Shown here: in pieces, positions 1,119-53,014 of the stretch | Numbering within the stretch: position 1 is the stretch's first letter | How the letters are laid out: every line of letters starts with the position of its first letter | From: an uncultured Actinomycetes bacterium | Lineage (GTDB): Bacteria; Actinomycetota; UBA4738; HRBIN12 | Length of the DNA: 64,000 nt | Direction: 5' to 3' | Assembly: GCA_963786805.1 (NCBI GenBank) | Contig: CAWBAK010000004.1 | Span: 455,813-519,812 of the forward strand | Made by a program: the position numbers and the translations under genes | Notes under the pieces: model-generated | What the model was told of the DNA's origin: nothing | The model's input: only the letters and a program-made list of their open reading frames with translations | Database searches by the model: none

Positions 1119-1181
1119 ACGCCGTCGCAGCTTGCATCGGCGTCCCGCTCGGCAAACATGAGCCCCCGTAGACTGGGTGGC

Positions 1182-8315: not shown

Positions 8316-9163
8316 GCTGGCTGCGCAACCCGTGGGCCAAGGCGCGCTTCCTGTGGGCGATCGCGATCGCGTACATCCTGTGGACCCTCCTGCCGGTCGT
8401 GATCGCCGTGTTGTTCTCGTTCAACGGCGGCCGCTCACTGACCGCGTGGCAAGGGTTCTCGACGCAGTGGTACGCGGGGAACGTCGGCTCCGTCTTCGAC
8501 GATCCCGACCTCCGTTCGGCGCTCGGTCAGAGCTTCAAGCTGGCCGGCCTGACCGTGCTGTTCGCCGTGCCGCTCGGCGTCGGGTTCGCCCTCGCGCTCG
8601 ACCGCTGGCACGGTCGGGGCTCGGGGGCGGGGAACTTCGTCATGCTCTTCTCGTTCATCACCCCGGAGATCGCGATCGGCGTGGCGCTGTTCCTGTTCTT
8701 CACGCAGCTCGCCACGGGGATCGGGACCGGGTTCCTCGCGCAGGTGCTCGCGCTCTCGATGTTCATGATGGCCTACCCGGTCATCGTCGTTCGCGCGCGG
8801 CTGCTCTCGATCGGCAAGGAGTTCGAGGAGGCGGCGATGGATCTGGGCGCCTCGCCCGTGGGAGCGATCGGCCGGGTGCTGTTGCCGCTCCTGTCGCCGG
8901 CGATCCTCGCGAGCGTCGCGATCGTGTTCGCGGCGGCCATCGACAACTTCGTCATCAGCCAGCAGCTGTCCTCTGGCGCCGGCACGCAGACGATCCCGAT
9001 CCTGATCTACAGCGCCGCCCGGCGCGGCCCGCTCCCCTCGGTGAACGCCCTCGCGAGCATCACCTTGTTCGCGTCCACGTTCGTGATCGCGATCGCGGTG
9101 CTCTTCTATCGTCGCCGGACGGCGGGCGAGCGCGGCGACCACCTCGCGGCGCTCCGACTCTGA
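8312..9163 (+). CDS. ABC transporter permease (PotC-like)
   Basis: 283 aa read from the end of table ORF 6599..9163; ATG 8312 overlaps the PotB stop (ATGA); MDLGASPVGAIGRVLLPLLSP loop. Confidence 0.85.
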   Translation: MSWLRNPWAKARFLWAIAIAYILWTLLPVVIAVLFSFNGGRSLTAWQGFSTQWYAGNVGSVFDDPDLRSALGQSFKLAGLTVLFAVPLGVGFALALDRWHGRGSGAGNFVMLFSFITPEIAIGVALFLFFTQLATGIGTGFLAQVLALSMFMMAYPVIVVRARLLSIGKEFEEAAMDLGASPVGAIGRVLLPLLSPAILASVAIVFAAAIDNFVISQQLSSGAGTQTIPILIYSAARRGPLPSVNALASITLFASTFVIAIAVLFYRRRTAGERGDHLAALRL

Positions 9164-9164: not shown

Positions 9165-10396
9165 TCAGAGCTCACACGCGCGCGTGAACGCTCCCTGCGC
9201 GCCACGGACGCACGTGTCGATCCCCGAGCCGCCGTCGAGCAGGTCGTACTCGGGACCTCCGTTCAGGAGGTCGTCGCCCTGGTCCCCGTGGATCACGTCG
9301 ATCCCGAACTGCCCCTCGACGGTGTCGTTCCCCCGTCCCCCGAAGACGAGGTCGTTTCCGAGCCCGGCACTCACGACGTCGTCGCCCCCGTGCGCGCAGA
9401 TCACGTCGTTCGCGTCGGTGCCTCGGAGATCCGGGTCGCTCACGCCCGCCCCCTCGATCGTGCAGATCGGGAGCGGCTGCCAGTCCGGAGACAGGTCGGG
9501 AGCCGGGTCCTGCGTCAGTCTCGTGAGGAACGTGCCGTCCGGATGGATCGACCAGATGTCGATGTTGCCCTCGCCGATCTGGAACGAGACGAACGCGATG
9601 GTCGTTCCGTCCGGCGACCACGAGGGATCGAAGTCCATGAAGGACGCGCTCGACGTCAGATTGGTCTCGATGCCGGTGAACACGTCGATCGTGATGATGT
9701 CCGACGTTCCCTTCGAACAGCAGCGCTCGACCGCGATCCGGGTGCCGTCCGGCGACCACGAAGGGTTGGCGTCGATGTCGGAGTTCACCGTGAGGGCGTG
9801 CTCTCCGGTCCCGTCCGCGTTCATCACGTAGATCTCGGGGAACCCCCCGTCGCGGTTCGACGTGAACGCGATCCTCGTGCCGTCCGGCGACCACGCGGGC
9901 GAACGATCGGCCGAACCCGAGGGCTGGGTGGTGAGCTGAGCGCGGGCGGTCCCGTCGGCCTTGACGACGAAGATCCGGAACGGGCCGCTCCCCCTGGTCC
10001 GCGCCGCGTAGACGATCTTCGTGCCGTCGGGCGACCACGACGGGTCTCGCTCCGGGAACGGCGTTCTCGTGATCCGCACACGCGCCTTCCCGTCGGACGT
10101 GGCGGTCCACAGGTCCGATCTGCCGCTCTGCGGCAGTGTTCGGACGAACGCGATCCGCCGGCCGTCCGGCGACCATGCCGGCTGCGAATCGGCGATCCCG
10201 TCGTTCTCGGTCAGCGGCGCCGGGTTCTCTCCCGTTGCGTCGAGGGTGAACAACTCGGCATCGCCGTCACGATCGGAGCGGAACGCGAGCATCCGTTGGA
10301 AGACGGCCACAGTGCACTCTGCGCGCTCGCCGGCGGCATCGTGGCGACCGTCAGGGCGCAGATCAGCAGCAGCATGAGACCGGTGGCTCGACGCAT
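9165..10396 (-). CDS. secreted TolB-like beta-propeller (PD40 repeats) fused to RTX calcium-binding repeats; N-terminal frameshift
   Basis: Body (table ORF 9165..10490) has about 7 WSPDG..IAF PD40 blades, then GGDDVVSAGLGNDLVFGGRGNDTVEG..GDQGDDLLNGG nonapeptide repeats. A strong signal peptide MRRATGLMLLLICALTVATMPPASAQ with SD AAGGA starts at 10396 but is one base out of frame with the body (shift ~10300-10320). Confidence 0.7.
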
Positions 10397-10419
10397 GGAG
10401 TCCTTTAGGATGTGTCGCC

Positions 10420-11605
10420 GTGAAACCTACCACCCGTCGTTCGGCGTTCCTGGCCGCCGCACTCGCGTGCTCTGGTGGCGTTGGCCGCAACCGCGCTCGC
10501 AGAGGCGCGCGATCCGAACGAGGAGCCGCGTCCGCTCCGCCCGATCGTGAAGACGCGGAAGATCGCTCCGGGCCTGCTGTTCACCCGGATCATCGAGAGA
10601 CGACCGCCGCGGCGTACCTTCGTCCTGAAAGCCGATCTCTCCCGGCCACTCACGGTGGACATGACCTTGGCCGGTCCGGCGATGCCGAGCTCGCGCACGA
10701 CGAGCGACATCGCGAAGTCCCACGATGCCCTCGCCGCCACCAACGGCGACTTCAGCGTGCCGGGCGTTCGCCCCGTCCACCTGTTCGCGCAGGACGGCGA
10801 CATCCTGCACACGGCCGCGCAGGGCCCGATGTTCGCCCTGCGACGCGACGAAACGGGCGCGTACGTCGGCACGCCCGAACTCGAGATCGCGGTCACCGAT
10901 CTGGACAGCGGACAGACGTTCGATCTGGACCGTTGGAACCGCGGTTCGCCTACCCCGGGAGAGATCGCGGGTTTCTCCCCCGTCGGCGGCACGCTCGAGC
11001 TCACTCCGCCGTTCGCCTGCTCGGTCCGGCTGCTGCCCGACGGCCCTCTTTCGTTCGACGCCGGCGGGACGGGCGTAGTCCGCGCGTTCCACGTCGACGT
11101 CGCCGAGTGCTCCTCCGAACCGATGCCCCGCAAGGGCGGTGTGGTCCTGTCGGCGCCCCCCGCGACGGACGAGGCGACCCAGCTCCTCGCCATGACGCCG
11201 GGAACGCCGATGCGACTCCGATGGTCCCTCGGCTGGGAGAACGTGTACGACGCGATCGGCGGCATGCCCATCCTCGTCGAGGACGGCCGGGTCGTCGCGG
11301 AGGGCTGTTCGAGCGCGTTCTGCCGACGCAACCCGCGGACCGCGATCGGCTGGACGGCGAGCGGGCGCGTTCTGTTGGTCGTTATCGACGGGCGCCAGCC
11401 CCGCTGGTCGGTCGGCTCCGCGCTCGGCGAGCTCGCCAAACTGATGGTCGACCTCGGTGCGGTGTACGCCCTGAACCTGGACGGAGGCGGAACCAGCGCG
11501 ATGTGGGTCGACGGCGAGCTCGTGAACCGGCCCTCGGACGGGCAGCAGCGGGTCACGACCACTTCGGTGCTGGTCCTGCCCGGCAACGATCCCGGAGAGG
11601 TGTGA
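10420..11605 (+). CDS. phosphodiester glycosidase family protein (DUF2233/NAGPA-like), secreted; frameshift inside signal peptide
   Basis: Body is ORF 10475..11605 (..NGDFSVPG..LNLDGGGTSAMWVDGELVNRPSDG). The signal/lipobox MKPTTRRSAFLAAALACSGG begins at GTG 10420 in another frame; both merge into one hydrophobic leader if one base is corrected near 10465-10475. Confidence 0.65.
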
Positions 11606-11638
11606 ATCCCTCCGAGGCCCTCACCTCTGCCTTCCCGA

Positions 11639-13028
11639 TCAAGCGTTGAACGCCACAGGAGACCTGGCGCGGGGGCACACGTCACTGCCCAAGACCAGCT
11701 TGCGAGCGACCGAGCGGTACGCGCCGCCTCGGTCGGGGATCCGCTCCCGATAGAGACCGGCGGCGTCCGTCGTCGCCAGCTCGACCGTCCGCCAGTCGCC
11801 GGAGACACGCCGCTGGATCCGGACGGTGACGTTCCGGAAGCAGCTGGCGAATCCGTCCGAAGCAGAGACCATTCCGCGCGCCACGAGGTGACGGCTGAGG
11901 GCAAGCGTGATGGATCGAGCGTGCACCGTGGCCGTGACGGTGAAGTCCGTCGCGCTCGTGCCGGTCCCGCTCGCGTTCGTCACGGTGATCCGGCCGGTCG
12001 TCGCTCCGACCGGCACGACGGCGGTGATCCTCGTGGACGAGACGACGTTGAAGCTGCTCGCCGCGGTTCCGTTGAACCTCACCGAGGTCGTCCCCGTGAA
12101 GTTCGTCCCATCGATCGCGACGGTCGTCCCGCTGGGACCGCTGGTGGGCGAGAACGACGTGATCGTCGGCGACCCGGTCGGCGTCACCGTGAAGTTGCCC
12201 GTGCTCGTCGTCGGTCCCGCCGGGCGTGGTCACGCTGATCCGGCCAGTCATGGCACCGGATGGCACCACGGCGGTGATCTGCGTCGGGGAGTTGACCGTG
12301 AAGTTGGTCGCGCTGGTGTTCTTGAACTTCACCTCCGTTGCGCCGGTGAAGTTCGTCCCCGTGATGACCACCGAGGTGCCCACAGGGCCGGAGGTCGGAA
12401 CGAACGAGGTGATCGTCGGCGCCGCCGCCGCGCCGGTCACCGTGAAGTCCTGGTTGCTGGTCGCCGTCCCGCCCGGCGTGGTCACGCTGATCCGACCCGT
12501 CGTCGCGCTGTTCGGCACGGTGGCGGTGAGCTGGGTGCCGGAGGGATTCCACGAGAACGTCGTCGCGTTCGTGAGGTTGAACTTGACCGCCGTCGTTCCC
12601 ACGAGGTTCGAGCCGTTGATCGTGACGGAGGTCCCGACGGCTCCACTTGTTGGGGAGAAGTTCGTGATGCTCGGAGCGCACGACGAGGAGACCGTGAAGT
12701 TGTCGGTGCTCTCGCCCGAGCCGTCCGGCGTCGTGACCAAGATCCTCCCGCTCGTGGCGCCGGCGGGCACGACGGCGGTGATCGAGTTGGGCGAGCCCGT
12801 GAAGGTCGTCTGATCGACGCCGTTGAACTCAACCAGGGTGGCACCCTGGAAGTGGCTGCCGGAGATCGTGATCGAGGTGCCGACCGGGCCACACGCGGGC
12901 GTGAACGCACCGACCGTGGGCGCCGGGGCCGCTTCGGCAACAGGCGCAACGGAAAGGCTCAGCACGACGACCGCCAGCGACACCGAACCGATGAGGCGGC
13001 GGGGCAGCGAGCGACTCGAAGGACTCAT
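11639..13028 (-). CDS. cell-surface protein with tandem IPT/TIG domains; frameshift ~12200
   Basis: ATG 13028 with GGGAGG SD 4 nt upstream; MSPSSRSLPRRLIGSVSLAVVVLSLSVAPVAEA signal; at least five repeats of ..PTSGPVGTSVTITGTNFTGAT.VKF..T.AT.FTV.S.T.ITAVVP.GATTGRI.VTTPGG spread over ORFs 11682..13040 and 11639..12187 (different frames). Confidence 0.7.
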
Positions 13029-13121
13029 TTCGCCTCCCAAGTGAGGCGATAAAGCCTAGCCGCTCTCCTCCGAGGCACACAAGACGAAACCCACTTTCGC
13101 CCACCGCACGGTGAGCGCGGC

Positions 13122-13857
13122 TTACGCGGCCGCAGAGAGCGTCACGTAGTTCGCCCGCGCGCTCTCTGTGTAGAGGGCGTACGCCTCGTCGGACTGGAGG
13201 TATGCCGGGACGTATCCGAGGATCCGCTCGTACCTGGCAGCCTCGAACTCCCGCGCGGACGCGAGGCTCCACCCCGCGTTGTTCCGTAGCTCTTCGAGGA
13301 GGTCCGTGCCGATCACCTCGGTGCTCCCGAACATGGCGGACCCGATCTCGTGACCTAGGACGACACCGGTCGCGAGGTCGACGACCGCATCCCCGTTCCG
13401 GATCACCGCGACGCGCAAGGGATCGAAGAACGAGTTCCTCGTGATGCCGAAGCGGTCAGCTGCCGCCTGTGCCAGAACGAGCTGTCTTGGAGAGCCGAGG
13501 CCGGCCGCACGAGACAGGACCGCATCCCCGCGCGCCGATACGAACAGGCCCACCGTCGTCAGTTGCCGAACGAATGCGGGAGTGAGCTGCGACGCTGCTT
13601 GCCCGTGCCCGGACATCGCCTCGCTTGGGCTCCGGTTCCGAGAGTCCCGCCTGCGCCGAGGGCTGCGCCTCGGCCGGAACCACCTCCTGGCTGGAGCCGC
13701 CGACAGGAAACGAGAGGTCCTCGAAGGGGACCGGCACCGAAAACGTCGGGGCGGTCCCTCCATCCGGAATCGCCCGCGCCATCAACGGTACCGTCATCAA
13801 CAGGCCGAGCAACAGGATCATGGTTGGGCTGACCGACGTACGCGACCGAAGTTCCAT
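13122..13857 (-). CDS. secreted hypothetical protein; frameshift ~13620
   Basis: ATG 13857 with GGAGGAGGG SD; MELRSRTSVSPTMILLLGLLMTVPLMARA signal and Pro/Glu-rich linker in ORF 13456..13959; conserved-looking C-terminal domain (..VIRNGDAVVDLATGVVLGHEIGSAMFG..) in ORF 13122..13763, another frame. Confidence 0.5.
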
Positions 13858-14027
13858 GGACGGATCCCTCCTCCAACGCGCAAGACCGTTCAGTGTCCCG
13901 CCTTCGCTCGAATCGTGCAAGGGACCTCGTCTGCCGGTCGATTCGGCTCTCGATCTCAACCAGGCGCGTGCGGGAATACCGACCGACCCCCGGCACAGGC
14001 CGGGGGTCGGTCGAAACGTACCGACGG

Positions 14028-15773
14028 TCAGTTCTCGCAGCCCGCGATCGAGTCGCTGCCCGGGCCTCCGTTGCAGGTGTCGTTGCCCGGACCGCCGTTG
14101 ATCGCATCGTTCCCTCCGCCGCCGCGGATGTTGTCATTCCCGGCGCCACCGCGGAGGCCGTCGTTACCAGAGCCACCCTTCAACGCGTCGTCGCCGCCGC
14201 CGCCGAGAACGGTGTCGTTGCCCGCCCCCGCTCTGACGGTATCGCGGCCGCCACCGCCTCGTGCCGTGTCGTCACCAGCGCCGCCGCGCAGAGTGTCGTC
14301 GCCATCTCCACCGGACAGCGTGTCGTTACCGGCTCCCCCGGCGAGCGTGTTGGCGGAGCCGTTCCCGACGAGCGTGTCAGCGAACGCCGAGCCCGTCACG
14401 TTCTCCACGGTGGTGAGGACGAGGGTGTCTGTCCCCTGGCCGGTCGCGACGCCCGTCGCGAGATTCACGTTGACGGCAGCAGCAGCAGCACCGTAGTGCG
14501 CGACATCCGTGCCGTTGCCGCCGTTCATGATGTCGTTCCCGTTGCCTCCGACCAGCCGGTCGTTGCCGTCGTCGCCGTTCAGGGTGTCGTCCCCGTCGCC
14601 CCCGTCGATCGTGTCGTCGCCGACACCCCCCGAGATCACGTTGTTGCCCGTGCTGCCGGTGAGGAGGTCGGCGCCGGAGCCACCGGTCAGGTTCTCCGTG
14701 GTCGTGATGGTGTCGGTCCCCGCGCCGACCGTGTTCTGGGCGGCCACGACCGCAAGGCTCACCGTAACGGCCGCGGCCGACGTGGAGTAGCTGGCCGTGT
14801 CCGTTCCGATGCCGCCGTTGATCCCGTCGTTGCCGAGATCACCGATCAGCGTGTCGTTGCCATCGTCGCCGTTCAGGGTGTCGTCGCCTGCTCCACCGTT
14901 GATCACGTCGTCGCCGGCGGCACCCGAGATGACGTTGTTGACGGTGCTGCCTGTCAGGATGTCTGCTGCCGAGCCACCCGTCAGGTTCTCGACGTTCGTG
15001 ATCGTATCGCTCCCCGCGCCTCCGGTGTTCTGCGCCGTTGTCGTCGCGAGGTTCACGGTCAGGGCGGCAGCGATCCCAGTGTACGTCAGCGTATCGGTCC
15101 CGGCGCCCCCGTTGAGCGTGTCCGCGTCCGTTCCGGTACCGCCGTTCAAGGTGTCGTTGCCGTTACCGCCCGTGAGGCTGTCGGCCCCGGCTTCGCCGTT
15201 GATCGTGATCGCGGTCGCGAACGTGGCACCGTTCACGCTGTCGTTACCACCGCCGGTGTTGACGGTGAAGTTCTCGATGCCCGCTTGGGTGATATCGGAC
15301 CCGTTCACCTCGAACGGAACGAACGTGATGGTGTCGACTCCTCCCGAGCCCGTGATCGTCAACGAGTCGGTCCCGCCGAGCAGGTCGATGTTGAAGTCGT
15401 CGTCGTCGTCGAACGAGCCGCCCGCACCACCGTCATTGATGGTGACGCTCTCGTTCCCGGCGGCGCCGTCCACATCGATCGTGCCGATGTCGGCGGAATC
15501 GTTGTTGTCGCAGTCCCCGTCCGCCTGGGGCGCGATGACGATGTCGCCGTTGGCGGCGAGCGAGAAGGTGACGGAATCGCCCGACGCCAGGTCGACATTG
15601 AGGACTTGATTCGGTGACACGCCCGTGGCTGCTTCGCAGGTCACCGCGGCCATGGCGGGGATCGCCGTTAGGCCGACGACGAAGGTCGCCGTGAGTACGG
15701 AGAACAAGAGCGCGCCGAGCCGCCTCGCAACCTTGCGCGGCCGAGTCGCACGGGCAGTAGCGTGAGCCAACAT
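14028..15773 (-). CDS. secreted RTX (hemolysin-type calcium-binding repeat) protein 1
   Basis: ATG 15773 with AAGGGAGG SD; signal MLAHATARATRPRKVARRLGALLFSVLTATFVVGLTAIPAMA; more than 25 GGxGxDxL/I nonapeptide repeats (GGAGDDTLNGDDGNDTLIG..). Confidence 0.8.
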   Translation of the reverse strand: MLAHATARATRPRKVARRLGALLFSVLTATFVVGLTAIPAMAAVTCEAATGVSPNQVLNVDLASGDSVTFSLAANGDIVIAPQADGDCDNNDSADIGTIDVDGAAGNESVTINDGGAGGSFDDDDDFNIDLLGGTDSLTITGSGGVDTITFVPFEVNGSDITQAGIENFTVNTGGGNDSVNGATFATAITINGEAGADSLTGGNGNDTLNGGTGTDADTLNGGAGTDTLTYTGIAAALTVNLATTTAQNTGGAGSDTITNVENLTGGSAADILTGSTVNNVISGAAGDDVINGGAGDDTLNGDDGNDTLIGDLGNDGINGGIGTDTASYSTSAAAVTVSLAVVAAQNTVGAGTDTITTTENLTGGSGADLLTGSTGNNVISGGVGDDTIDGGDGDDTLNGDDGNDRLVGGNGNDIMNGGNGTDVAHYGAAAAAVNVNLATGVATGQGTDTLVLTTVENVTGSAFADTLVGNGSANTLAGGAGNDTLSGGDGDDTLRGGAGDDTARGGGGRDTVRAGAGNDTVLGGGGDDALKGGSGNDGLRGGAGNDNIRGGGGNDAINGGPGNDTCNGGPGSDSIAGCEN

Positions 15774-15905
15774 GTGGTCCTCCCTTAGTCCAAGACGCTG
15801 CGGGGGAAGCGCCCCCCGCCAGACCCCCAACCCTATGCATCGTTGCTTCCAGAATCAAGGCATGCCGAAGGGAACCTGAGACCGACCCAGAGCGTCTACA
15901 CCCGT

Positions 15906-16262
15906 TTACGCATTTCCGGCACCCGAAACTACCCGGCTCCTGCCAGACCATCCGGGCGGAAGCGGATCGCACAGCGACTGCGCCGTGGCGGGACGTCTCT
16001 CGACGACCCTACTGAACCGTTGGCGCGTGATCAGGTTCTGCAGCTCATACGGATCCTCGTCGTATCGGTAACTCCTCCTCTCCCGTCGTGAGCCGTGTAT
16101 AGAGGTCGTTCGCCGTGCGGAACGAGCAAAACGGCGGCGCCCTCCCCTCGAGGCCTCGCCGAACAGTCCCGTCCGATAACCGACCTCGTTCAGCCACGTC
16201 GCGAGCGTCGAGGAGTCGTCGAAGGCCGCGAAGCCGCCGCTCGGGCCGTCGTTCCCGTACAC
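15906..16262 (-). pseudogene. possible sulfatase gene remnant
   Basis: Stop-free ORF in the 620-bp gap between the two RTX genes. It contains sulfatase-like ..DDSSTLATWLNEVGYRTGLFGE.. joined to a C-terminal-like ..YRYDEDPYELQNLI.. in about 118 aa, consistent with a collapsed arylsulfatase. Confidence 0.3.
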
Positions 16263-16332
16263 CCCATTGGGAGTGCAGGAACACGATCCCGCGCTTCATC
16301 CGCACTCCCGACGAGACGAGGGCCTTAGACAA

Positions 16333-16362
16333 GGAATCGGCCCCCTTTCGGGGGCCGATTCC
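16333..16362. terminator. perfect 13-bp stem / 4-nt loop hairpin (GGAATCGGCCCCC-TTTC-GGGGGCCGATTCC), likely terminator of RTX gene 2
   Basis: Lies 31 nt downstream of the RTX2 stop (16394) on the minus strand; followed by TTTGCGTT on the plus strand and UUGUCUAA on the minus strand. Confidence 0.45.
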
Positions 16363-16393
16363 TTTGCGTTCTGCGGTGCTACGCGTTTGGTCC

Positions 16394-18211
16394 TTAGACC
16401 AGACGAGCCGCCTGCGGAGCCCGAGGGTTCCCTCGTGTCCCGCAGCTCCGCCGGATCTCGACCTGGCTGCAAGTGTCGTTGCCCTTGCCGCCGTTGCCGA
16501 CGTCCGTGCCGGAGCCACCGAACAGCCGGTCGTTGCCGGCAGCACCACGGAGGGTGTCGTCGCCATTGACGCCGCGAAGCACGTCGTTGCCCTTGCCACC
16601 CTTCAGTGTGTCGTTCCCGCTGAAGCCGGTCAGCGTGTCGTTACCGCCGCGGCCGTTGAACAGGAAGTTGACCGTGCCGCCGCCCGCGAACGGGCCGCCG
16701 GTGATCTGGTCGTTGAACTGGGAGCCTACGACGATCTCGACGATGTCGCCGAAACCATCATCGCCTTCGCCGCTGGCGAACCCGAGGCTCAGGTCGACGT
16801 TGACACCGTTGGCCGAGTTGATGAAGCTCACTCGGTCGGCGCCGGTTCCACCGGTGAAGGTGTCGTTGCCCTCACGGCCGACCAGCGTGTCGTTGCCCGC
16901 GAAACCACTCAGGATGTCGTCGCCGACACCACCATCGAGGAGGTTGCGCACGTCGTTACCGAGGAGCGTGTCGTTCGACGAGCCACCGATCGCATGGTCC
17001 AGGCTGTCAGCCGTGAACGGTCCGAGCGGAGCGACGCCGTTGTCCAGCGCATCCAGGTCGATCAACTGGCCCGAGGTCTTCGCGGACGCGTCGACCAGGT
17101 CGATCCCAGCCCCACCGACGAACGTGTTGGTGGTCGGGTCGTCCCAGATCAGGACGTTGCCGGCCGCTGCCCCGACGAAGTTGGTCGGGCCGTCGAACGT
17201 GTCGGCACCCTGACCCGTGGCGGTACCGAGCGCCGGGGTGATCGTCATCGCGGCCGACGAGGTCGACCAGTCGATCGTGTCACCAGCGTCGCCGGTGACA
17301 TCGTCGTCGCCGTCACCCGGAGTGTAGGCCGAATCCCCACATCCACCATCGTCCAGCGTGTCGGCCCCAGTACCGGTGATGACGATCTCGAAGCAGTCGA
17401 TGGAGTCGACCTCTTCTCCCGCGTCATCGTTGTCACCGTCGGCGTTGGCATCACGGCCCGCGTCGCTCCCGTTCAGGACGAACGTGGAGGTCGTGCGGGT
17501 CGCGTAGCTGAGCGTGTCCACGCCGCTGCCGCCGCTGACGTCGCCGTCATCGGCCGTGCCCGGAGACAGGACGTCGTCGCCGTCGTGGCCGTGCAGACGG
17601 TCAACCACGAAGGTCAATGCGCTCGCGTCCCACACGTCGTCTCCGTCGCAGCCCTCAGCGTCGTATTGCTCGACCCCGAGGACCTCACCGAGGCCGCCGT
17701 TCAGGTTGAACGTCGTGTTCGTCAGGACGACCGTGTTGTCCTGGTCGCAGTTGACGAAGATCCCCAGCAGGTCGGTCGTGAGCGCCGGGTTCGCTCCGAG
17801 GTCGATGTGCCACGCGATCGCGGTACTGAACGTTCCGCCGCTGGCCTCATCGATGTCGAATTCCTCGGCGTCGCTCGGCGCGCCGAGAACGACGATGGAG
17901 ACGGTGTTCGAGTTCGACGCGCTACCACAGGCGACGAAGCCGGTGACTCCGTCGTCGAACAGGATCGCCCCCGCCGGCGCCGCCGGATCGAGGTCGTCCG
18001 CAGTCGTCTCCACAGCCACGGCCGCAGTGGCGCCCGGGTCGATCGTGATGTTGATCGTGTCGGTGGCGGGGTTGTACGTGCAGGCTGTTACGGCCGACGC
18101 TACCCCGGCTCCGACGATCGCCAGGGCCTGGAAGCCGACGAGAGCGAAGGTGGTTACCAGCGCTCTCGAGGCCATGCCCCGGCGAGATTTCCCTTTACGG
18201 AGGAAGCTCAT
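16394..18211 (-). CDS. secreted RTX (hemolysin-type calcium-binding repeat) protein 2
   Basis: ATG 18211 with AAAGGAG SD 7 nt upstream; signal [40 protein letters not shown]; Asp/Gly-rich N-terminal region, then GGxGxD repeats ([59 protein letters not shown]). Confidence 0.8.
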
Positions 18212-18470
18212 AAATGGGCTCCTTTCTCTCCTCCGTCCAAAACGAACAAGTTCCGCGCAGGGACGCAAAGACCCTGCAGGGGGAAGTCCGGGCGGATGCT
18301 ATGCCCGTGAACCTGGCGAGTCAAATACGCCAACCTCCCCTTGCCACACCCAGCTTCCGGTGCTGGGGCGCCGCGTCCCCCCTTTCGGGCGTCCATACGC
18401 GGGAGCGGCCTTCGCCGCTTCCGGTCTAGATAACGGCGCTCGTATCGAAAGGTTGCTGGGGGCCAAGGTT

Positions 18471-20060
18471 TTAGGCAGCCGCGTCGCTCAGGCTCATCGA
18501 CCCGCCGTACATCGTGCCATCCACCCAGACCCTCAGCGTGGCTGAGACGAAGCCTCGGCTGGGGAGGCCCGCGACGGGGGTCTCTGGGTTCAACAGGTCG
18601 AAGGTTCCCTCGAAGCGATACACCGTGGAGCCGTCAGCATTCGGTGCCGTGTCGGCCAGGGTGGCAACGCCACCGTAGAGATGGATCCCCGCGGCCGACG
18701 TGAGCCCGACTCGGAATTCGATCTGTCCGCCCGTGGGGTCAACCCCGCCCCATTGCTGGAGAGAGAACGGCCACGTGAGATCTCCTACCGAGTCCCGGGC
18801 GCCTCCCTTGACGACCTGGGAGAACTGGAATCCTCCATCGGTCCGCTCAACCTGCGACGATGCTCGCGAAGACCCATCACACGTGCAAACTTCAACGGAT
18901 TCGGTTGAAGTGCCGAAGTCGAAGGACCAGGCCGGCGCGGGTGGCACGGTCGGCTCGGGCGAGGGCTCCGGCTCGGGCGACGGCTCGGGGGATGGGGCCG
19001 GAGCCGGGGGTACCGTCGGCTCCGGGGAAGGAATCACGACGGGAGTCGGCTCCACCGGATCGGGATCGACGCGGTCGCGGTCTCTCGGCACTCGCTCCCG
19101 CACCGGCGGAGACAGGACCTCCGCCTTCGGCTCGAGCGGTGGCGCGTCGATGACCTCTGGGGCGGCGATGGGGGCTTCCGCCCGGTCGACCCGCTCGCCG
19201 CGGTCCTTCACGATCGTGGCCGCGCCGACGGTGACGCCGCCGGCCACCAACAGAGTCATCCCGGCGGCAAGGACCCGCTCGCCGAATCCGGCCCCGCTCG
19301 CGACGACCGCGGGACTGGACGCGACGCTCGACACGACCTCGGGGGTGGCCACCTGGGCGACCTGTCCGACGTGGGCAACCCGATCGACGACGCGCTTGGC
19401 GAGGTGCGTGGCCTGGAGCAGCCAGAGGAGCGGAAGCACCGCGATGGCGGCCAGTCCGCCCTTCTCGGTCACGGCGAGGAGCCAGCGGCGCCGGAAGCTG
19501 CCTTTGGCCCGATGGATCAGGGCCTTGGCCTGCGCGGGCGACATCTCCATGACCTCGCCGATCTCCCGGTGCGAGCGCCCCTCAAGCTCGCGAAGGACGA
19601 GCGCGGTCCGGTGGCTCTCGGGAAGGCCAGACAGGACCGAGAGCACCAGGTCCCGTTCGATGAGCCGTTCGACGGCATCTTCCGGGCCCTGGGCGGGATC
19701 GACCCGCTCGAACTGCTCAAGCGGCTCGTCGTCTACCAAAGGACGGCGCGTGCGCGTTCGGATCGCGTCCAACGACACGTTCGTCGCGATCCGTCCGATC
19801 CACGGCTGGAGCGCATACCTGCCGTTGAATCGGTAGAGGCCCTGGAAGACCCGGATCATGGTCTCCTGCAGGGCCTCGTCGGCGTCGTGCGCATTGGGTA
19901 GGAATCGCTGGCACACGTGCCTGGCGAGCCCGGAGTACCGACGGTGGATCTCGACGAAGGCCTCGGGGTGCCCGGCCTGGAAGTCGAGAACGAGCATGCG
20001 GTCATCCAGGGCTTTGTAATCGCCCTGTCCGTTGCGTAGGTCGGTAACCCTGATGACCAC
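18471..20060 (-). CDS. ECF (sigma-70 family) sigma factor fused to transmembrane segments, Pro-rich linker and C-terminal extracytoplasmic-type domain
   Basis: GTG 20060 preceded by AAAGGGAGA SD. Sigma region 2 (LVLDFQAGHPEAFVEIHRRY..ETMIRVFQGLYRF) and region 4 (LPESHRTALVLRELEGRSHREIGEVMEMSPAQAKALIHRAKGSF) are followed in the same frame by hydrophobic stretches (GLAAIAVLPLLWLLQA; GMTLLVAGGVTVGAATIV), a PEPSPEPEPSPEP linker and a ~150-aa Gly/Thr-rich domain. Confidence 0.7.
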   Translation of the reverse strand: MVIRVTDLRNGQGDYKALDDRMLVLDFQAGHPEAFVEIHRRYSGLARHVCQRFLPNAHDADEALQETMIRVFQGLYRFNGRYALQPWIGRIATNVSLDAIRTRTRRPLVDDEPLEQFERVDPAQGPEDAVERLIERDLVLSVLSGLPESHRTALVLRELEGRSHREIGEVMEMSPAQAKALIHRAKGSFRRRWLLAVTEKGGLAAIAVLPLLWLLQATHLAKRVVDRVAHVGQVAQVATPEVVSSVASSPAVVASGAGFGERVLAAGMTLLVAGGVTVGAATIVKDRGERVDRAEAPIAAPEVIDAPPLEPKAEVLSPPVRERVPRDRDRVDPDPVEPTPVVIPSPEPTVPPAPAPSPEPSPEPEPSPEPTVPPAPAWSFDFGTSTESVEVCTCDGSSRASSQVERTDGGFQFSQVVKGGARDSVGDLTWPFSLQQWGGVDPTGGQIEFRVGLTSAAGIHLYGGVATLADTAPNADGSTVYRFEGTFDLLNPETPVAGLPSRGFVSATLRVWVDGTMYGGSMSLSDAAA

Positions 20061-20221
20061 AGTTCTCCCTTTAACGGAACGCCGGGTGATCGTCAAAGGT
20101 TGCACGCAGAACGGCTATTCTCGCCCGCCCTCGGTCCCAACCAGCGTAACAGGAGCCCAGAGCCACCGGCCTCGGCTGACCTGGGGACGCTCATCGGAGG
20201 CAGGGAGCCGGCGGAGCCGGC

Positions 20222-21667
20222 CTAGGGGGTCGGGTCCAGGATCAGCGGGTCCCGCGGTTGCTGCCGGAAGTTGAAAGCGCCGGTGAGATCGCCGAGAACC
20301 TCGACCTCCTCGCGCACCGTCGGGCGTGAGTCCGGGCGGTCGAGCGTCGCCGGATCCAAGCGCTCCCCATCGAGGAACCGATCCTCGATCAGCTTCAGGT
20401 AGGCGTCGAAGCTCAGCATCTGGTGGTCGATGTAGCCCTGCCTGGCGAACGGACTGATGACCAGCGAGGGAACGCGCAGGCCGTAGCCGGCATCGTCGAC
20501 CCTGGGCGGCAGCACGTGGTCGTAGAAACCGCCCCAGTCGTCCCAGGTGAGGAAGATCGCGCTCGACTCCCAGGCATCGCTGTTGCCGACCGCGTTGATC
20601 AATCGCGTCACGTACGCCTGGCCCGCGTCGATCCCGCGCCCCGAGGACGGGTGGTCGCTCGCGCTTCCCGGGATGACCCAACTCACCGAGGGAAGGCTCC
20701 CGTCTCGAACCTGAGCAAGGAAGTCGTCGTGGGTCAGGATGCGGTCGAGCTGGTCGGTCTCGTGCAGCGTCGTGAAGCCCGGCAGCGGGTTGCGGGTGGA
20801 CGGCGTGTTCTCGCCGCGAAGGTCGTCGCACGGCGGGAACACACAGGTCCCGTCGGCCACGTAGTACCCCCACGACACGTCCTCTCGGTCCAGAAGCCAC
20901 GTGATGTCGGTCCAGGCGTAGATCGGCCGCTCGCCGTACTCCCACCGCTGTTCGGGAGTCTTCAGGTCCACGTTCGAGATGCACGACATCGGGTCCCGCG
21001 GGTCGGAGCAGACGGCCGACCATCCGGACACGAGGAACAGGTGGGCCGGCAACGTCCAGCCGTCGGTGGGGCCGAACATCCGGTCGTGGAGAACGAACTC
21101 GTCCGCGTAGCGCCAATAGTTGGGGATGTTCCGCCGGTCCAGGTAGCTCATGACGTCGGGCTGCAGATCGGGACCGACGAAGGGACGGCACTTCGCCGAG
21201 CGCCGCGCGACGCACCACTTCTCCGCTTCCGGGAGCGCCGCGATGTGGCCCTGCATCGATCCGCCGTCGATCGAGCGGACGGACGCCTTCTGGTTGTGCG
21301 GGCCTCCTTTGTATTCCTGCGCGCGCGAGTGATACGGGCAGGAGGGGTGCCCCAGGATGGGATCGGGGATGCAGTTCACCGGCTCGCCGTCGACGATCGT
21401 GAAACCGTCGGCTCCCGGATAGGTCCCGAAGTAGTGATCGAAGGACCGGTTCTCCTGCACGATGAAGATCAGGTGATCGAGCTTGCGGAGGCCGGAGCCG
21501 GGCCCGACGACCTCGCCACTCGCGTTCCGGATCGCCGCGTCGACGGCTGAGCCCGAGGACGCGAGGATCGCGCTCGGCAGCACGACGGCCAGCGCAACGA
21601 GCGCGCCGATGATCGGCGCACGCAAGCTCTCGATCCGCGAGGGCACGCGGAGCCGATCGATCCTCAT
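20222..21667 (-). CDS. secreted phosphoesterase family protein (phospholipase C / acid phosphatase-like)
   Basis: ATG 21667; signal [38 protein letters not shown]; [21 protein letters not shown] is the hallmark of the phosphoesterase (PlcN/AcpA) family. Only the last 482 codons of table ORF 20222..23620 are used. Confidence 0.85.
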
Positions 21668-21862
21668 CGAGGCCTCGACTCTAAGCGCACGCACGTTCGG
21701 GCGGGTGTGGGGCGACCTGGTGACTTGGCCACTTCGAGCGTATCGGCCGCCTGGCGCCGGAACCGTAGGCGGCGGTGTGGGCCGAGGGGGCAACCACGGC
21801 CGGCCGCAGCCTAGGACGTTGCGCGGTAGAGGGGTGCCGGATGCCGCCGTACGGTCAGTTCG

Positions 21863-22912
21863 ATGCACCTCGTCCCCACCACCCGACGTTTGGTGGCGGT
21901 CGCCCTCGCGGCGGCCCTGGTCGTTGGCGTCGCGCCGGGTGTGGTTGCCGGTGCGGACGACGAGGTGGATCAGGTCCTCAAGGAGCTCCACAAGACCAAG
22001 GATCGGATCCGGGCCCGCTCCCACAAGCTCCGCCTGCTCCAGCGAGACCTCAACCGGCTCGCGACCTCCATCTCGCAGAACGAGGCACAGATCCACGAGG
22101 CCGACGAGCGGATGGGGGTGCTCGAGGGCGAGATCGACGTGCTGGAGGACGAGAACCTCGTGCTCGAGGGCCGGCTCGGGGACCGCAACCGCGAGGCCTA
22201 CATCCTGGGACCGGGCGCGCCATTCCTCTACTTGCTGACCGCGACCTCGGCCGAGGACGCGGCGGCGCGGATGTCGATCCTCACCGAGATGAACCGCCGG
22301 GACGCCGAGCTCGCGGTCGCGGTTCACCAGAACACGCAACGGCTCGGACGCGCGCGGGTCGAGCTGGTCCGGCTCCAAAGGACCCGGCAGCTCTCGATCC
22401 AGCAGCTCGAGCTCGACAAGGCCGAACTCCGGGAGCGACTCGCCGACGTCCGGAAGCTCTACGCGAGCCTCCAGATCATCAAGGAAGAGATCCTGTACCG
22501 GCTCTCCCGGATCCGGCCCTTCGCCGTGTGTCCGATCCAGGGTCCGCACGCGATCGCGAACGACTTCGGCATCTGGGTCCATCGCTCGAAGGAGCGGGGC
22601 GGAGACCACGTCCACCAGGGCAACGACATGATGTCCCCGATGGGAACCCCGGTCGTCGCGCCGTTCGATGGCGTCGCGGTCGCCGCCCCGAACAAGCTGG
22701 GCGGCCTGGCGGTCAAGGTGTTCGGCGACTACGGATACGTGTACATGGCCCACTCGTCCAGCTACGGCCAGCTCGGAGCGGTCGAGACCGGCGATGTGGT
22801 CGCGTACGTCGGAGCCACCGGAAACACGGGCGCGCCACACGTTCACTTCGAGTGGCATCCGGGCAACGGCGCGGCGGTCGACCCCTACCCGTTCCTGATG
22901 AAGGTCTGCTAG
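21863..22912 (+). CDS. M23 family metallopeptidase with N-terminal coiled-coil (murein hydrolase activator-like)
   Basis: 349 aa; signal [31 protein letters not shown]; long coiled-coil; C-terminal LytM domain [36 protein letters not shown]. Confidence 0.85.
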
Positions 22913-22941
22913 GCGCTCCGGGCGAGTCGGCCGCTCCTCGT

Positions 22942-23520
22942 TCAGCGACTCTTCTGAAGGGCGATCAGCTCCGAGATCTGTCCGCGCATCTCCTGGAGGC
23001 TTCGCGAGATCCCCGACAGTTGTTCCTGCACCCGGTCCGAGCGCAGACCGAGGGCCTGGAAACGCTCCTCGGTGAGCTCGAGCATCCCTCGGATCGACCG
23101 GGCCTGCTGCGATCCGGGCGCCGTCGCTCGGCCGGCCGGGACCGCCGCGATCTGCGCGGCTTGTGAGCGCAGGATCGTCTCGGCCATCGCGAAGACGCGC
23201 TTCTGCGCCGCGCGGGCGAGGGCCTCCTGCCGCCACCAGTGACGGAAGTTCCTCACCATCCCCTTCCGGCCGTGGCGCGGGCCGGGGGTTGAAGGCGCCG
23301 GCGGGATGAACGCGATCGGGGACCGTTCGAGCTCGACCACGGGACCGCCCATCGAATCCATCAAGGCCTCGACCAGCGAGAGGCGAACCCCCGGCTCCTC
23401 CTCCATGGGAGCCCACGGGTCCGCGGTGGTCGCTCGCGGGCCGGGGACGGCGTCCGACCTCCGTGCGATCGTGAACAGCGGCTCCGATGCGGGGCGTGCC
23501 GTTCGATCCTCCAGCGTCAT
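22942..23520 (-). CDS. hypothetical protein (C-terminal coiled-coil)
   Basis: 192-aa ORF with plausible composition and no domain recognised; the start could be an internal Met. Confidence 0.4.
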
Positions 23521-23718
23521 CTCCGTTCGCCTCCTCGGGGGGGAAGAACCCGCGGATCGGCGCGAGCGTCACCGCCGGTCCGGGGTGGAGAACCGTAGAG
23601 CCGGGCGAGGGGCCTTTCAACGACCCGGGCCTGTCTCACTCTTCGGCCCGTTGTTCGGCCTCGTTGGATCGCTGCCGTTCCCGGTAGGGTCGATGCAGAC
23701 ACGACCGAGGAGGCCGAG

Positions 23719-24150
23719 ATGCCGGTTCGCACCGCCGATGCCGAGTGGACGGGGACCCTTCAGGAGGGCACGGGGCGCATGCGTTTCGGAGGGGGCGCGT
23801 TCGAGGGCCAGTACTCGTTCGGCTCGCGCTTCGAGGAGGGCGAGGGAACGAACCCCGAGGAGCTCATCGCGGCGGCGCACGCCGGGTGTTACTCGATGGC
23901 GTTCTCGGGCAACCTCGTCAAGGCGGGATTCGCGCCCGAGCACATCTCGACGACGGCGGTGGTTCATCTCGACAAGGGCGAGTCCGGCTTCTCGATCTCG
24001 GGGATCGAGTTGAAAACCGAAGCGAAGGTGGGCGGCGACATCGACGATGCACGCTTCCAGGAGATCGCGGCGCAGACCAAGGACGGATGTCCCGTGTCCC
24101 GAGCGCTCGCCGCGATCGGAGACATCAGCGTGACGGCCAAGCTGCTCTGA
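23719..24150 (+). CDS. OsmC/Ohr family peroxiredoxin
   Basis: 143 aa; ..[25 protein letters not shown].. has the two conserved Cys motifs. Confidence 0.9.
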
Positions 24151-24165
24151 GAACGGGCGGTCGGC

Positions 24166-24195
24166 GGCGGGGCGACATCCGGACGCCGCCCCGCC
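24166..24195. terminator. GC-rich stem-loop (GGCGGGGCG ~12 nt CGCCCCGCC) after the osmC-like stop
   Basis: 9-bp perfect stem 16 nt downstream of TGA 24148-24150; no U-tract, typical of high-GC intrinsic terminators. Confidence 0.25.
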
Positions 24196-24248
24196 TCGTA
24201 CCATCCATGGTTCCCCGACGTTCCGAGAGACCGGGAGGTGGCACACCT

Positions 24249-24612
24249 ATGAAGAGGTCACATGCCCGTATCGCCGTGGTCGCGGCAACCGCGATCGCGC
24301 TGGTGGTCCCCGCCATCGCGGCCGAGGCGCAGCGTCAGCCGGCGCGGCCTGGGCCCGCTCGGCACCGCCGCGAGGGTCAGGATGGTGGACGGCAATCGTT
24401 TCCGGCCGGCCACCTTGACCGTCGCCCGCGGCACGAGGGTGCGATGGGTGAACAGCGACAACGTCTCGCACACCACCACGTCGAACACGGGGGTCTGGGC
24501 GGCGACGCTTTCCCCTGGTGAGCGCTTCGCGCGCCGGTTCCGCCGCGCGGGCGAGTTCAACTATCGGTGCACGATCCACACGGGGATGATCGGGAGGATC
24601 GTCGTCAACTAG
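24249..24612 (+). CDS. secreted cupredoxin (plastocyanin/amicyanin-like blue copper protein); frameshift ~24340
   Basis: ATG 24249 with GGGAGGTGG SD; signal MKRSHARIAVVAATAIALVVPAIAAEAQ in the frame of ORF 23745..24521. The mature domain VRMVDGNRFRPATLTVARGTRVRWVNSDNVSHTT..YRCTIHTGMIGRIVVN (His..Cys-x2-His-x2-Met copper ligands) is in the frame of ORF 24262..24612. Confidence 0.65.
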
Positions 24613-24646
24613 CAGCGCCTCTCTATCATCCGGTCAGGCGAGACGG

Positions 24647-24994
24647 GATGGGAGCGGCGATGGCCGAGCTCGGCGCTGGGGTCTACGTCACCAGGATCGA
24701 TACCGACGACTGGGAGCCCGACGAGGAAGTTGGTGGCTCCGCCCACATGCTGTTCGACGAGGCAGACGATTCCAAGGTCGGTCTGTGGAAGGCTGAGCGG
24801 GCCCGGTGAACCCGACCGAGGTGGAGCTCCCGGCCAGGGAGACGATCATCGTCCTCGAGGGCAAGGTGCGCATCGAGATCGAAGGGAGCCCGACGCTCGA
24901 GCTGGGATCGGGCGACCTGGTCTCGATCCCGAGGGCCGCCCGGATCACGTGGGCTCCCGATCCCGATTGCCGGGTGGTCTGGGTCTACTCGTGA
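24647..24994 (+). CDS. cupin domain protein (DUF861/cupin_3-like); frameshift ~24805
   Basis: N-half ..VTRIDTDDWEPDEEVGGSAHMLFDEADDSKVGLWKAE ends at TGA 24807-24809; C-half NPTEVELPARETIIVLEGKVRIEIEGSPTLELGSGDLVSIPRAARITW continues one base out of frame. Together they form one ~115-aa cupin. Confidence 0.6.
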
Positions 24995-25029
24995 GCTCGG
25001 CCGGGTGATCGTCGGTCGACGAACGCCGG

Positions 25030-25849
25030 CTAGGAGGCCGCTCGCTCGAGGGCTCGCCTCGCCGCCTGGCCGTTCAGCCGGACCGCGATCAAGATGGTCG
25101 TGAAGCTCACGGCCAGGAGCAGGGTCGCGATCGCGTTGATCACCGGCGTCAGACCGAATCGGATCCTCGAGTAGACGCGGATCGGGAACGTGACCGAGGT
25201 AGGCCCGGACGTGAAGAACGCGATGATGAACTCGTCGAAGGAGAGCGTGAAGGCGATGAGTGCGCCCGCTGCGATGCCGGGGACGATCAGGGGCAGCGTC
25301 ACTCGGAGGAAGGTCGCGGCGTTGCTCGCACCGAGATCGTGCGCCGCCTCTTCGATCGACCGATCGAAGTACGCGAGGCGCGTCCGGACGATCGCCGACA
25401 CGAAGATCATGTCGAACACGACGTGAGCGGCGATGACCGTGTGCAGCCCGAGGGCGACTCCCGCCAGGGTGAAGAACGACAGGAGGCCGATCGCCAAGCA
25501 CGATGTCGGGAACGACGGCCGGGAGGAAGAGGAGGCTGTCGAGCACCCGGCTCCGAACGGTCCGCTCGAGCCCGAGCGCAAGCAAGGTGCCGAGCACGGT
25601 CGAGATGACCGTCACGGCGAGGGCGACGAACACCGTGTTCTTGAGGGCATCGATCAGATCCTGGCTCCTCAGGAGCTCGCCGTACCACTCGGTCGAGAAC
25701 CCGCTCCAGCGCGTGGGCTGACCGCCTCGATTGAAGGACAGCACCACGATCACGAGGATCGGCAGGTACAGGAACCCGTAGACGAAGACGCTGCTCGCGG
25801 TCAGCAACGCGATCGCGCGTGCGCCCGGCCTACGTGACATGGGGCGCAT
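25030..25849 (-). CDS. ABC transporter permease (PotC-like); frameshift ~25500
   Basis: ATG 25849 (MRPMSRRPGARAIALLTASSVFVYGFLYLPILVIVVLSF..) in one frame; C-terminal two-thirds (..IGLLSFFTLAGVALGL..DLGASNAATFLRVTLPLIVPG..) in ORF 25030..25581. Confidence 0.7.
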
Positions 25850-26630
25850 GCCGTTTCTCTCGGTTGAGGATCCAGGATTGAACCAGCAGCAGGAGCAGCG
25901 TGATCATCATCACGAACAGGGCGAACGTCGCTCCGAACGGCCAATCTCGCGCCTGGAAGAACTGGCTCTGGATCAGGTTGCCGACCATGATCTCCTTCCC
26001 GCCCCCCAAGCAGATCGGGCACGATGAAGTTCCCGAGGCTCGGCACGAAGACGAAGATGCAACCGGCCATCACCCGGGAAGCGTGAGCGGGAGCGTGACC
26101 CGGAAGAACGCCCGCACCGGGCCCGCGCCGAGGTCGGAGGCCGCTTCCCGCGGCGGCCGGCCGAGGCGCTCGATCGACGCGTAGAGCGGCAGGATCATCA
26201 GCGGCAGGTACGCGTAGAGCAGGCCGACGACGATCGCGAACTCGTTGTTGAGGAGCGGGAGGGAGCCCTCGACGAGCCCGGCGCCGCGCAACGACCGGTT
26301 GATCAAGCCCTCGTTGCCCAGGAGCACGATCCACGCGTACGTCCGGATCAGCAGGTTCGTCCAGAACGGAAGGACGACCAGGACCAGCAGGCCGAGCCGG
26401 TATCGCGCGGGCCGAGTGGCGATGAAGTACGCAACCGCGTAGCCGAGGAAGAGGGCGATCGCCGTGGTGAGCAGCGCGGTTCGCAGCGAGAACAGCAGGA
26501 CGTCGACGAAGAGCGGGTCCAACGCGCGCCCGTAGTTGTCGAACGTGAACGTGTAGTCGATGCCCCCGGTGGGACTTCTGCGGAAGAAGCTGTACGCGAG
26601 GACCAGCCCAGCGGGGACCAGGAACAGCAC
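25830..26630 (-). CDS. ABC transporter permease (PotB-like); at least 2 frameshifts
   Basis: N-part ORF 26070..26630 (..TFTFDNYGRALDPLFVDVLL..DLGAGPVRAFFRVTLPLTLPG) aligns with E. coli PotB. The C-part IAGCIFVFVPSLGNFIVPDLLGG then ..MVGNLIQSQFFQARDWPFGATFALFVMMITLLLLL..* (stop 25830-25832) is spread over two more frames; one switch is at the C6 run 26002-26007. Confidence 0.7.
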
Positions 26631-26750
26631 GCGACCAGTAGGCCAGACCCGGCCCGATCAAGAGCGCGCGCCGAGCCCACGGGCCGCTCTGGCCGGCCGC
26701 TCCAGGCGATCGCTTCTTCGTGCTCGCCGGGACCCCGCTCGGCGGTACGG

Positions 26751-53010: not shown

Positions 53011-53014
53011 CGCG

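Follow-up and report, generated by a model that had tools for sequence, protein, structure and literature searches.

Within the 64,000-nt stretch of DNA analysed here (the window), we located 14 small indels, which together break ten genes. Twelve sites involve 1 nt and one involves 2 nt, the size of the change at ~42795 being left aside. The broken genes are listed below together with one intact neighbour; indels are called private where they occur in the window's assembly only.

1158..3223, plus strand: yyaL-like gene (DUF255/thioredoxin-domain); private 1-nt insertion (C) at 3164
9165..10396, minus strand: TolB-like PD40 beta-propeller with an RTX C-terminus (family by Pfam); private 1-nt deletion at 10291
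10420..11605, plus strand: phosphodiester glycosidase (NAGPA) lipoprotein (Pfam); private 1-nt insertion (T) at 10471
11682..13028, minus strand: secreted protein with four IPT/TIG repeats; private 1-nt insertion (C) at 12209
13122..13857, minus strand: secreted protein with no family assigned, 244 aa when repaired; private 1-nt insertion at 13626
24249..24612, plus strand: cupredoxin with a signal peptide (Pfam); private 1-nt insertion (C) at 24333
24660..24994, plus strand: Cupin_3 protein; private 2-nt insertion at 24797-24798
25030..25849, minus strand: PotC-like ABC permease; private insertions at 25497 and 25805, private deletion at 25825
25830..26754, minus strand: PotB-like ABC permease; private insertions at 26632 and 26009, private deletion at 26073
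26751..27845, minus strand: solute-binding lipoprotein (SBP) of the PotB/PotC operon (Pfam); intact, at the upper edge of the indel-dense stretch
41371..43819, minus strand: adenylate cyclase with STAND/NB-ARC ATPase and TPR (cyclase-ATPase; Pfam); frame change at ~42793-42797

A first-pass annotation of this DNA had named 12 genes with a frame change. Ten of them were recovered, each no more than about 20 nt from the position given there; the remaining two, mfd and rsmA, were rejected as frameshifts. At the mfd 5' end (~41290) a gap of ~41 nt takes away the RBS and GTG start, and the rsmA 5' end (~52990) has an identical structure in the conspecific assembly. The compensated pair at 25805/25825 in PotC is new and absent from that earlier listing.

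Reading frames of the affected genes

Three-frame reading of the yyaL-like gene (Pfam Thioredox_DsbH match 2-162 of 163) finds its conserved C-terminus pushed into another frame, and the extra C is present in the window relative to the conspecific contig L164. In the TolB-like gene the deletion parts the signal peptide MRRATGLMLLLICALTVATMPPASAQSALWPSSNG from the body and is seen against three relatives and, by DNA alignment, against L164. When the intact proteins of L161, L162 and L163 are used as tblastn queries, residues 1-36 fall in frame -1 and residues 36-410 in frame -3. The NAGPA homologues P0001-P0008 are 394-395 aa long, and the corresponding N-terminus MKPTTRRSAFLAASLAGLVALAATALAE falls in two frames of the window; the insertion also shows in DNA alignments.

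The insertion in the TIG protein lies at the end of repeat 3, with the repeat unit running on in the other frame; the repaired protein has four TIG stretches, and the window's extra C is evident against L164. GC3 frame scoring alone was misleading for this gene, as it put it on the wrong strand, where the pieces gave no Pfam match; its placement was settled by reading the minus strand. For the second secreted protein there are full-length homologues (P0121-P0126), and P0141, from the same 90%-identity cluster, is 244 aa long. P0141 reads EPEPSEAVSGH across the junction and outside it is a near-exact match to the window's two-frame reading. In the source, the gene was called in truncated form, as the 164-aa P0127.

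Further along the window, the cupredoxin insertion is found neither in L165, L166, L167 and L168 nor in the conspecific L171, and L165 and L171 carry intact 120-aa genes. The cupin is a single ORF in L081, L085 and L088, while the L171 gene encodes 110 aa and has a 2-nt gap relative to the window; repair extends coverage of the Cupin_3 profile from 21-64 in the fragment to 5-64. In PotC, the tblastn match passes from frame -1 to -2 at ~25500, and the compensated pair 25805/25825 scrambles GRTRDRVL. The indels of this gene were seen in DNA alignments against five or six relatives and against L171, and the repaired protein matches BPD_transp_1 over 2-175 of 184. The PotB N-terminus passes from frame -2 to -3 at ~26633, and a second compensated pair, made up of the deletion at 26073 and the insertion at 26009, encloses VMAGCIFVFVPSLGNFIVPDLLGG. 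The PotB fragment matches BPD_transp_1 over 3-108 at 23 bits, under the cut-off, and the repaired protein over 4-177 at 48 bits. The adjoining SBP gene has no window-private indel against six relatives.

For the cyclase-ATPase, tblastn with the homologues P0398 and P0406 (826-827 aa) moves from frame -1 to -2 at ~42795, and distant homologues span the junction as one protein. No close relative of this gene was found, only distant homologues covering the site, and positions 41270-43855 of the window have no counterpart in the conspecific contig (L169/L170); the site sits in a 2.6-kb strain-specific gene. In the TolB-like, PotC, PotB and cyclase-ATPase genes, the homologue matches switch frame close to the junctions that had been predicted from the sequence.

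Distribution of the indels

As had been proposed, the indels are far from evenly spread, and placement simulations bear this out. Eight of the 14 sites lie within 2299 nt (P < 5e-6 against uniform placement, 0 of 200,000 simulations). With the two compensated +1/-1 pairs (spacing 20 nt and 64 nt) merged, the value is P = 2e-4, and with one event counted per gene it is P = 0.02. Four of the other six sites lie within 3335 nt (P = 0.008). Both stretches had been singled out by the first-pass annotation with different counts: the five sites ascribed to 9.2-13.9 kb are four, and the six ascribed to 24.2-26.7 kb are eight indels in four genes. The dense stretch stops sharply at 26632, next to the clean SBP gene. 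The expectation that the other long ORFs read through was upheld, with open frames and Pfam domains covered end to end: there is no uncompensated frameshift in the remaining window genes, a result that concerns uncompensated shifts only, as compensated pairs may remain in 28-41 kb and beyond 58.7 kb.

Homopolymers of at least 4 bases account for a single site of the 14, unlike the classic nanopore signature. Two sites touch short G/C runs, 25825 lying in CCCC and 26009 adjoining CCCCCC. Homopolymer error was considered as a cause and dropped: alignment to the conspecific contig identifies the extra base at 26009 as an A/T beside the run, and the base missing at 26073 lies outside the run, in a wobble position.

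The contact with these two G/C runs could be taken to favour programmed recoding or phase variation, whether by ribosomal frameshifting, by transcriptional slippage or by slipped-strand switching at repeats. Phase-variable contingency loci and programmed frameshifting also present one gene in two frames, but the window has no repeat tracts or slippery sites at these genes, and each protein is single-frame in its orthologues. With no common slippery motif, 13 of the 14 sites outside runs of at least 4 bases, and two or three shifts required in several of the genes, we regard recoding as scarcely conceivable.

Comparison with relatives

Thirteen of the sites could be compared with relatives, and at each the indel is private to the window's assembly: every relative that covers the site (70-97% DNA identity) is in frame, and none shares a lesion. 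The relatives compared, wherever they cover a site, were L164/L171, L161, L162, L163, L165-L168 and L081-L088. Those with intact frames include the conspecific contig L164/L171 (~97%), the 93% relative L161, the 94.5% short-read contig L165 and relatives at 76-86%; the L171 stretch was reached through an 85-aa ORF that it shares with the window. Orthologues are single-frame and none has the window's split structure, which upholds the reading of each split locus as one gene. A scan with the window's phosphoesterase found no close relative (best 62%) and showed distant synteny with the Acidimicrobiia MAG L017.

The conspecific assembly (ENA ERZ25039576 contig_201285) is independent of the window's and ~97% identical to it. 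Elsewhere it carries private indels of its own, 86 in 20.7 kb and 102 in 14.4 kb (~50 per 10 kb), and eno, mfd, prs and glmU, whole in the window, are called there as fragments. For several of those indels, comparison with third sequences places the change in ERZ25039576 contig_201285. Its private indels in these four genes show that errors of this kind do arise when the population is assembled.

With regard to gene content, the cassette at 24.5-28.8 kb is absent from L166, is represented in L165 by a 70%-identical allele, and occurs in the conspecific contig at ~96% identity without the window's indels. Because all four genes of the 9.2-13.9 kb cluster (TolB-like, NAGPA, TIG and secreted protein) also occur in the conspecific contig, strain-variable content is less clear there than in the dense cluster; the TIG and secreted-protein genes are absent from the 85% relative L163. 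The indels thus appear, in part, to concentrate where the population has alternative alleles or gene content, namely in the dense cluster and at ~42795.

The coincidence of the dense cluster with a cassette that is divergent or absent in relatives, together with the sharp end of the indels at 26632 beside a clean SBP gene, might be read as a trace of recombination-linked mutagenesis, in which recombination would have brought in or exchanged the two segments and error-prone repair synthesis would have scattered small indels along the tract. Against this, the conspecific contig has the cassette without the lesions, and poor consensus offers the simpler account. We also know of no mechanism that yields ~3 indels per kb without matching substitutions, and consider this origin very improbable.

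Substitutions in the broken genes

To the extent that they can be tested, purifying selection on the affected genes is otherwise normal. Six shifted genes were testable and carry 33 non-synonymous and 64 synonymous private substitutions (dN/dS 0.19). Eight intact neighbour genes have a private ratio of 34:78 (dN/dS 0.14), which does not differ from that of the shifted genes (Fisher P = 0.66), and the shifted-gene ratio departs strongly from the neutral expectation of 73% non-synonymous changes (P = 1e-15). A dN/dS so far below neutral gives no sign of decay. The repaired frames hold no internal stops, and full-length Pfam matches are regained.

These values bear most directly on the possibility that the genes are real and very recent pseudogenes, the strain having just inactivated accessory secreted and transport genes that it perhaps no longer needs. 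The affected genes are indeed all accessory (secreted proteins, the ABC importer, the strain-specific cyclase-ATPase), no housekeeping gene is struck by an uncompensated frameshift, the importer lacks a neighbouring ATPase gene, and a close relative does without the 24.5-28.8 kb cassette. As in pseudogenes formed by decay, small indels disrupt accessory genes; unlike them, the window shows no relaxed selection, nonsense codons or shared lesions, and as many as three or four lesions fall in one 0.9-kb gene.

Very recent mutations would give the same dN/dS, so decay, if real, would have to be extremely recent. It would nevertheless have to account for six genes that between them carry at least 11 independent indels, yet show near-zero neutral substitutions, no non-synonymous excess over intact genes and repaired frames free of nonsense codons. 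The 6-7 indels in two adjacent permease genes are far above what inactivation needs, and the essential genes of the sister assembly are broken by the same kind of private indel. Recent pseudogenes therefore seem unlikely. A narrower version, in which one Acidimicrobiia-like strain suffered a real burst of very recent frameshift mutations confined to its strain-variable cassettes, appears more doubtful still; if it were true (for example through mutagenic repair along recombination tracts), the ABC importer and several secreted proteins would have been inactivated near-simultaneously.

Origin of the frame changes

As the indels are seen only in the window's assembly and the broken genes show no decay, we interpret the frame changes as sequencing or assembly errors rather than biology. 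More specifically, they are most likely residual small-indel consensus errors in a metagenome-assembled contig and not features of the organism's genes (probability roughly 0.8). Of the two explanations that the first-pass annotation had left side by side, the private indels and constrained substitutions favour poor local consensus in strain-variable accessory DNA over real decay.

The 734-kb size of the source contig points to a probable long-read origin. Long reads err most often by indels, which shift reading frames, and where neighbouring allelic variants are collapsed, reads become misaligned and further indels enter the consensus (PMC8445201); near-finished consensus in nanopore MAGs takes ~40x coverage (PMC9262707). 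In the window, reads of co-occurring strains or divergent alleles may have been piled onto one consensus or, alternatively, local coverage of the assembled strain may have been low. Polishing would then leave or add single-base indels, at times as nearby +1/-1 pairs. The pattern resembles known long-read and collapsed-haplotype errors (IDEEL-type truncated ORFs), in which ORFs are disrupted by single-base indels that occur in one assembly only, are enriched near close allelic variants and are gone in independent assemblies (PMC8445201; PMC9262707). It differs from them in that the window's sites are mostly outside long homopolymers.

The frameshifts themselves bring no new biology, and their main value is as a quality flag. 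Deposited gene calls on this contig are truncated or split, as with P0127 in place of the 244-aa protein, and pseudogene counts or metabolic inferences drawn from them would be wrong, a "broken" polyamine-type importer being one example. As these sites show, indel damage to a metagenomic assembly can be very uneven and can follow strain-variable cassettes, so that a uniform error model underestimates the local damage.

Testing the frame changes against relatives

The G+C content of the window is 65-75% along its whole length, and it carries an actinobacterial housekeeping block (pth-mfd, eno, prs-glmU, ksgA, metG, pmt); its best distant synteny match is an Acidimicrobiia MAG (L017). At this composition non-coding frames also contain long ORFs, which makes the length of an ORF uninformative by itself; each claimed frame change was therefore tested against homologous proteins and the DNA of related contigs.

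For the segment at 24.2-26.7 kb, relatives were obtained from a metagenome scan using the intact solute-binding protein (SBP; 26751-27845, minus strand) as the query, which gave six loci with 76-83% DNA identity. In a three-frame reading of the window the PotB-like and PotC-like permeases are split across frames, while in all six loci each is a single ORF (PotB ~300 aa, PotC ~275 aa). Tblastn of the relatives' intact proteins against the window placed a change from frame -1 to -2 at ~25500 in PotC, and one from -2 to -3 at ~26633 in the N-terminus of PotB. Multiple DNA alignment identified the following indels in the window only.

Window-only indels in the PotB and PotC genes (minus strand)
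~26632, insertion
~26074, deletion, paired with the next
~26009, insertion
~25824, deletion, paired with the next
~25806, insertion
~25497, insertion

The pair at ~26074/~26009 encloses VMAGCIFVFVPSLGNFIVPDLLGG, which is the same as the relatives' sequence, shifted to another frame. The pair at ~25824/~25806 garbles GRTRDRVL at the N-terminus of PotC; the first-pass annotation had located the PotB and PotC breaks correctly and missed this second pair, which emerged from the DNA alignment. The neighbouring cupin is one ORF in three relatives, and at 24797 the window copy is two nucleotides longer than that of the conspecific contig. In the cupredoxin gene an additional C at 24333 is private to the window, being absent from four relatives and from the conspecific contig. 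Repair restores full-length family matches: the BPD_transp_1 match of PotB extends from residues 3-108 (23 bits) to 4-177 (48 bits), and the repaired PotC and cupin match their families over 2-175 and 5-64. The SBP-PotB-PotC operon (25030-27845) has no adjoining ABC ATPase gene, and is flanked by an opposite-strand glycosyltransferase and the cupin.

In the segment at 9.2-13.9 kb, the window differs from related contigs L161 (93% identity), L162 (86%) and L163 (85%) by two private indels: the TolB-like gene has lost 1 nt at 10291, and the NAGPA gene has gained a T at 10471. NAGPA homologues (394-395 aa, identity up to 94%) have an N-terminus starting MKPTTRRSAFLAASLAGLVALAATALAE, the first half of which lies in one frame of the window and the second half in another. 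In the minus-strand TIG gene, the third repeat ends in ISVTTPGGT and the expected TTSTGNFTVT is found one frame over; repair yields a protein with four TIG stretches. Antisense to this gene, plus-strand 11890-12810 is open for hundreds of codons with a GC1/GC2/GC3 pattern more typical than that of the real gene, and in L161 the gene caller chose the same antisense ORF (118 aa). Full-length homologues of the secreted protein have 237-259 aa, and the source's own call is a truncated 164-aa protein (P0127). Upstream, at the junction of two permease genes in an ABC operon (8250-8320, against L162 3690-3753), an in-frame difference of ~60 nt leaves the second permease without the first ~21 codons that the gene has in the 86% relative.

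A conspecific assembly

A 244-aa member of P0127's 90%-identity cluster (P0141) comes from the 135.8-kb contig_201285 of ENA ERZ25039576, four loci of which (L164, L169, L170, L171) span window positions 3152-58680 at 96-98.5% identity. At 13 of 13 sites (3164, 10291, 10471, 12209, 13626, 24333, 24797, 25497, 25805, 25825/6, 26009, 26073 and 26632) the window indel is absent from this contig. Indels private to contig_201285 itself are far more numerous (86 in 20.7 kb and 102 in 14.4 kb, ~50 per 10 kb). They are mostly 1-nt insertions and lie in the patches richest in mismatches; the contig's eno, mfd, prs, glmU, SBP and permease calls are fragmented where the window copies are whole. Where third sequences are present they place these indels on contig_201285, showing that assemblies of this population do yield private single-base indels. 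The alternation of clean and noisy patches over kilobase distances suggests that its consensus is a strain mosaic. In pairwise comparison with L164 alone, the window has one base more in the TIG signal peptide (12959) and in an intergenic spacer (3265). The former is probably an error of the conspecific contig, since the window reads there as a normal signal peptide.

Sites outside the two segments

In yyaL, a private C insertion at 3164 shifts the conserved C-terminus (15 residues) to another frame. The cyclase-STAND ATPase-TPR gene (41371-43819, minus strand) changes frame at ~42795: its 826-827 aa homologues align in frame -1 over residues 1-341/346 and in frame -2 from 342/348 to their C-termini. 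The whole gene lies in a strain-specific segment of 2.6 kb that separates pth from mfd (window 41270-43855); the ~97% identical conspecific contig lacks it, and this indel is consequently not polarised. A further strain-variable spot adjoins a DUF222/HNH gene, where 2.5 kb more is present in the conspecific contig (L169 2477-5026, against window 45223-45272), encoding an ECF sigma factor and a 646-aa protein.

Two possible frameshifts proposed earlier were not counted. At the mfd 5' end (~41290), next to the strain-specific segment, the anomaly is a gap of ~41 nt relative to the conspecific contig, comprising GGAGGAG (RBS) and the GTG start, with ATT CTG as the homologous codons; the mfd start in the window would need ATT/CTG, or a GTG ~40 codons downstream (41166). 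At the rsmA/ksgA 5' end (proposed at ~52990), no ATG, GTG or TTG lies upstream of the conserved GQNF motif (52880-53020, minus strand) in the window or in the conspecific contig, and no indel distinguishes the two at this end. Since both share this structure, it is not an error in the window's assembly, and the sequence suggests a non-canonical start codon (CTG?) or coupled translation. The upstream rpfB-like gene has its stop at 53015.

Clustering, and artefact or decay

Simulation bore out the proposal that the frame changes are clustered rather than uniform, on an extended site list. Eight of 14 indels lie inside 2299 nt, a count reached in 0 of 200,000 uniform simulations (P = 2e-4 with compensated pairs merged; P = 0.02 with one event per gene), and four of the remaining six lie inside 3335 nt (P = 0.008). 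No uncompensated frameshift was seen in the window's other genes; compensated pairs could go undetected in 28-41 kb, where the noisy conspecific contig is the sole comparison, and beyond 58.7 kb, where no relative was compared.

Substitutions were polarised using the conspecific contig and outgroups. Window-private changes number 33 non-synonymous and 64 synonymous in six shifted genes (dN/dS 0.19), and 34 and 78 in eight intact genes (dN/dS 0.14). The ratios are alike (Fisher P = 0.66), and that of the shifted genes departs from the neutral 73% non-synonymous (P = 1e-15). Decay would not leave eleven indels in these six genes while neutral substitutions are all but absent and nonsense codons are lacking; either these lesions are artefacts, or they arose at most a few generations ago. 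Very recent inactivation is improbable in our assessment.

The variability of the affected DNA may bear on why the indels lie where they do. The cupin/PotC/PotB/SBP cassette (~24.5-28.8 kb) is absent from NCBI MAG GCA_040902755.1 (L166, 91% identity). L165, a relative at 94.5%, has in its place an allele of only 70% identity, in which the permease is fused (569 aa) and the cupin is missing. The ~42795 site is inside a strain-specific gene. The segment at 9.2-13.9 kb is less clearly variable, its TIG and secreted-protein genes being missing from L163 and present in the conspecific contig. Among long-read errors, indels are the most frequent and give rise to frameshifts, and close-by allelic variants misalign reads, giving indels in a collapsed consensus (PMC8445201); consensus quality of nanopore MAGs hinges on ~40-fold coverage (PMC9262707). 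The length of the 734-kb source contig suggests long-read assembly. In strain-variable DNA, reads of close-by allelic variants would be misaligned and leave indels in the collapsed consensus. With private indels and low dN/dS, the first of the two readings offered in the first-pass annotation, that the consensus of a metagenomic assembly is locally poor in strain-variable DNA, is the best supported (probability roughly 0.8), and makes these frameshifts a matter of assembly quality rather than a biological feature.

Insertions make up 10 of the 13 polarised indels, and only one site lies in a run of at least four bases. Three private insertions (13626, 25497, 26009) turn CCAGC/GCTGG, a pentamer of which the window has 178, into CCAAGC/GCTTGG; they may reflect errors of basecalling or polishing that depend on sequence context, such as a modified motif.
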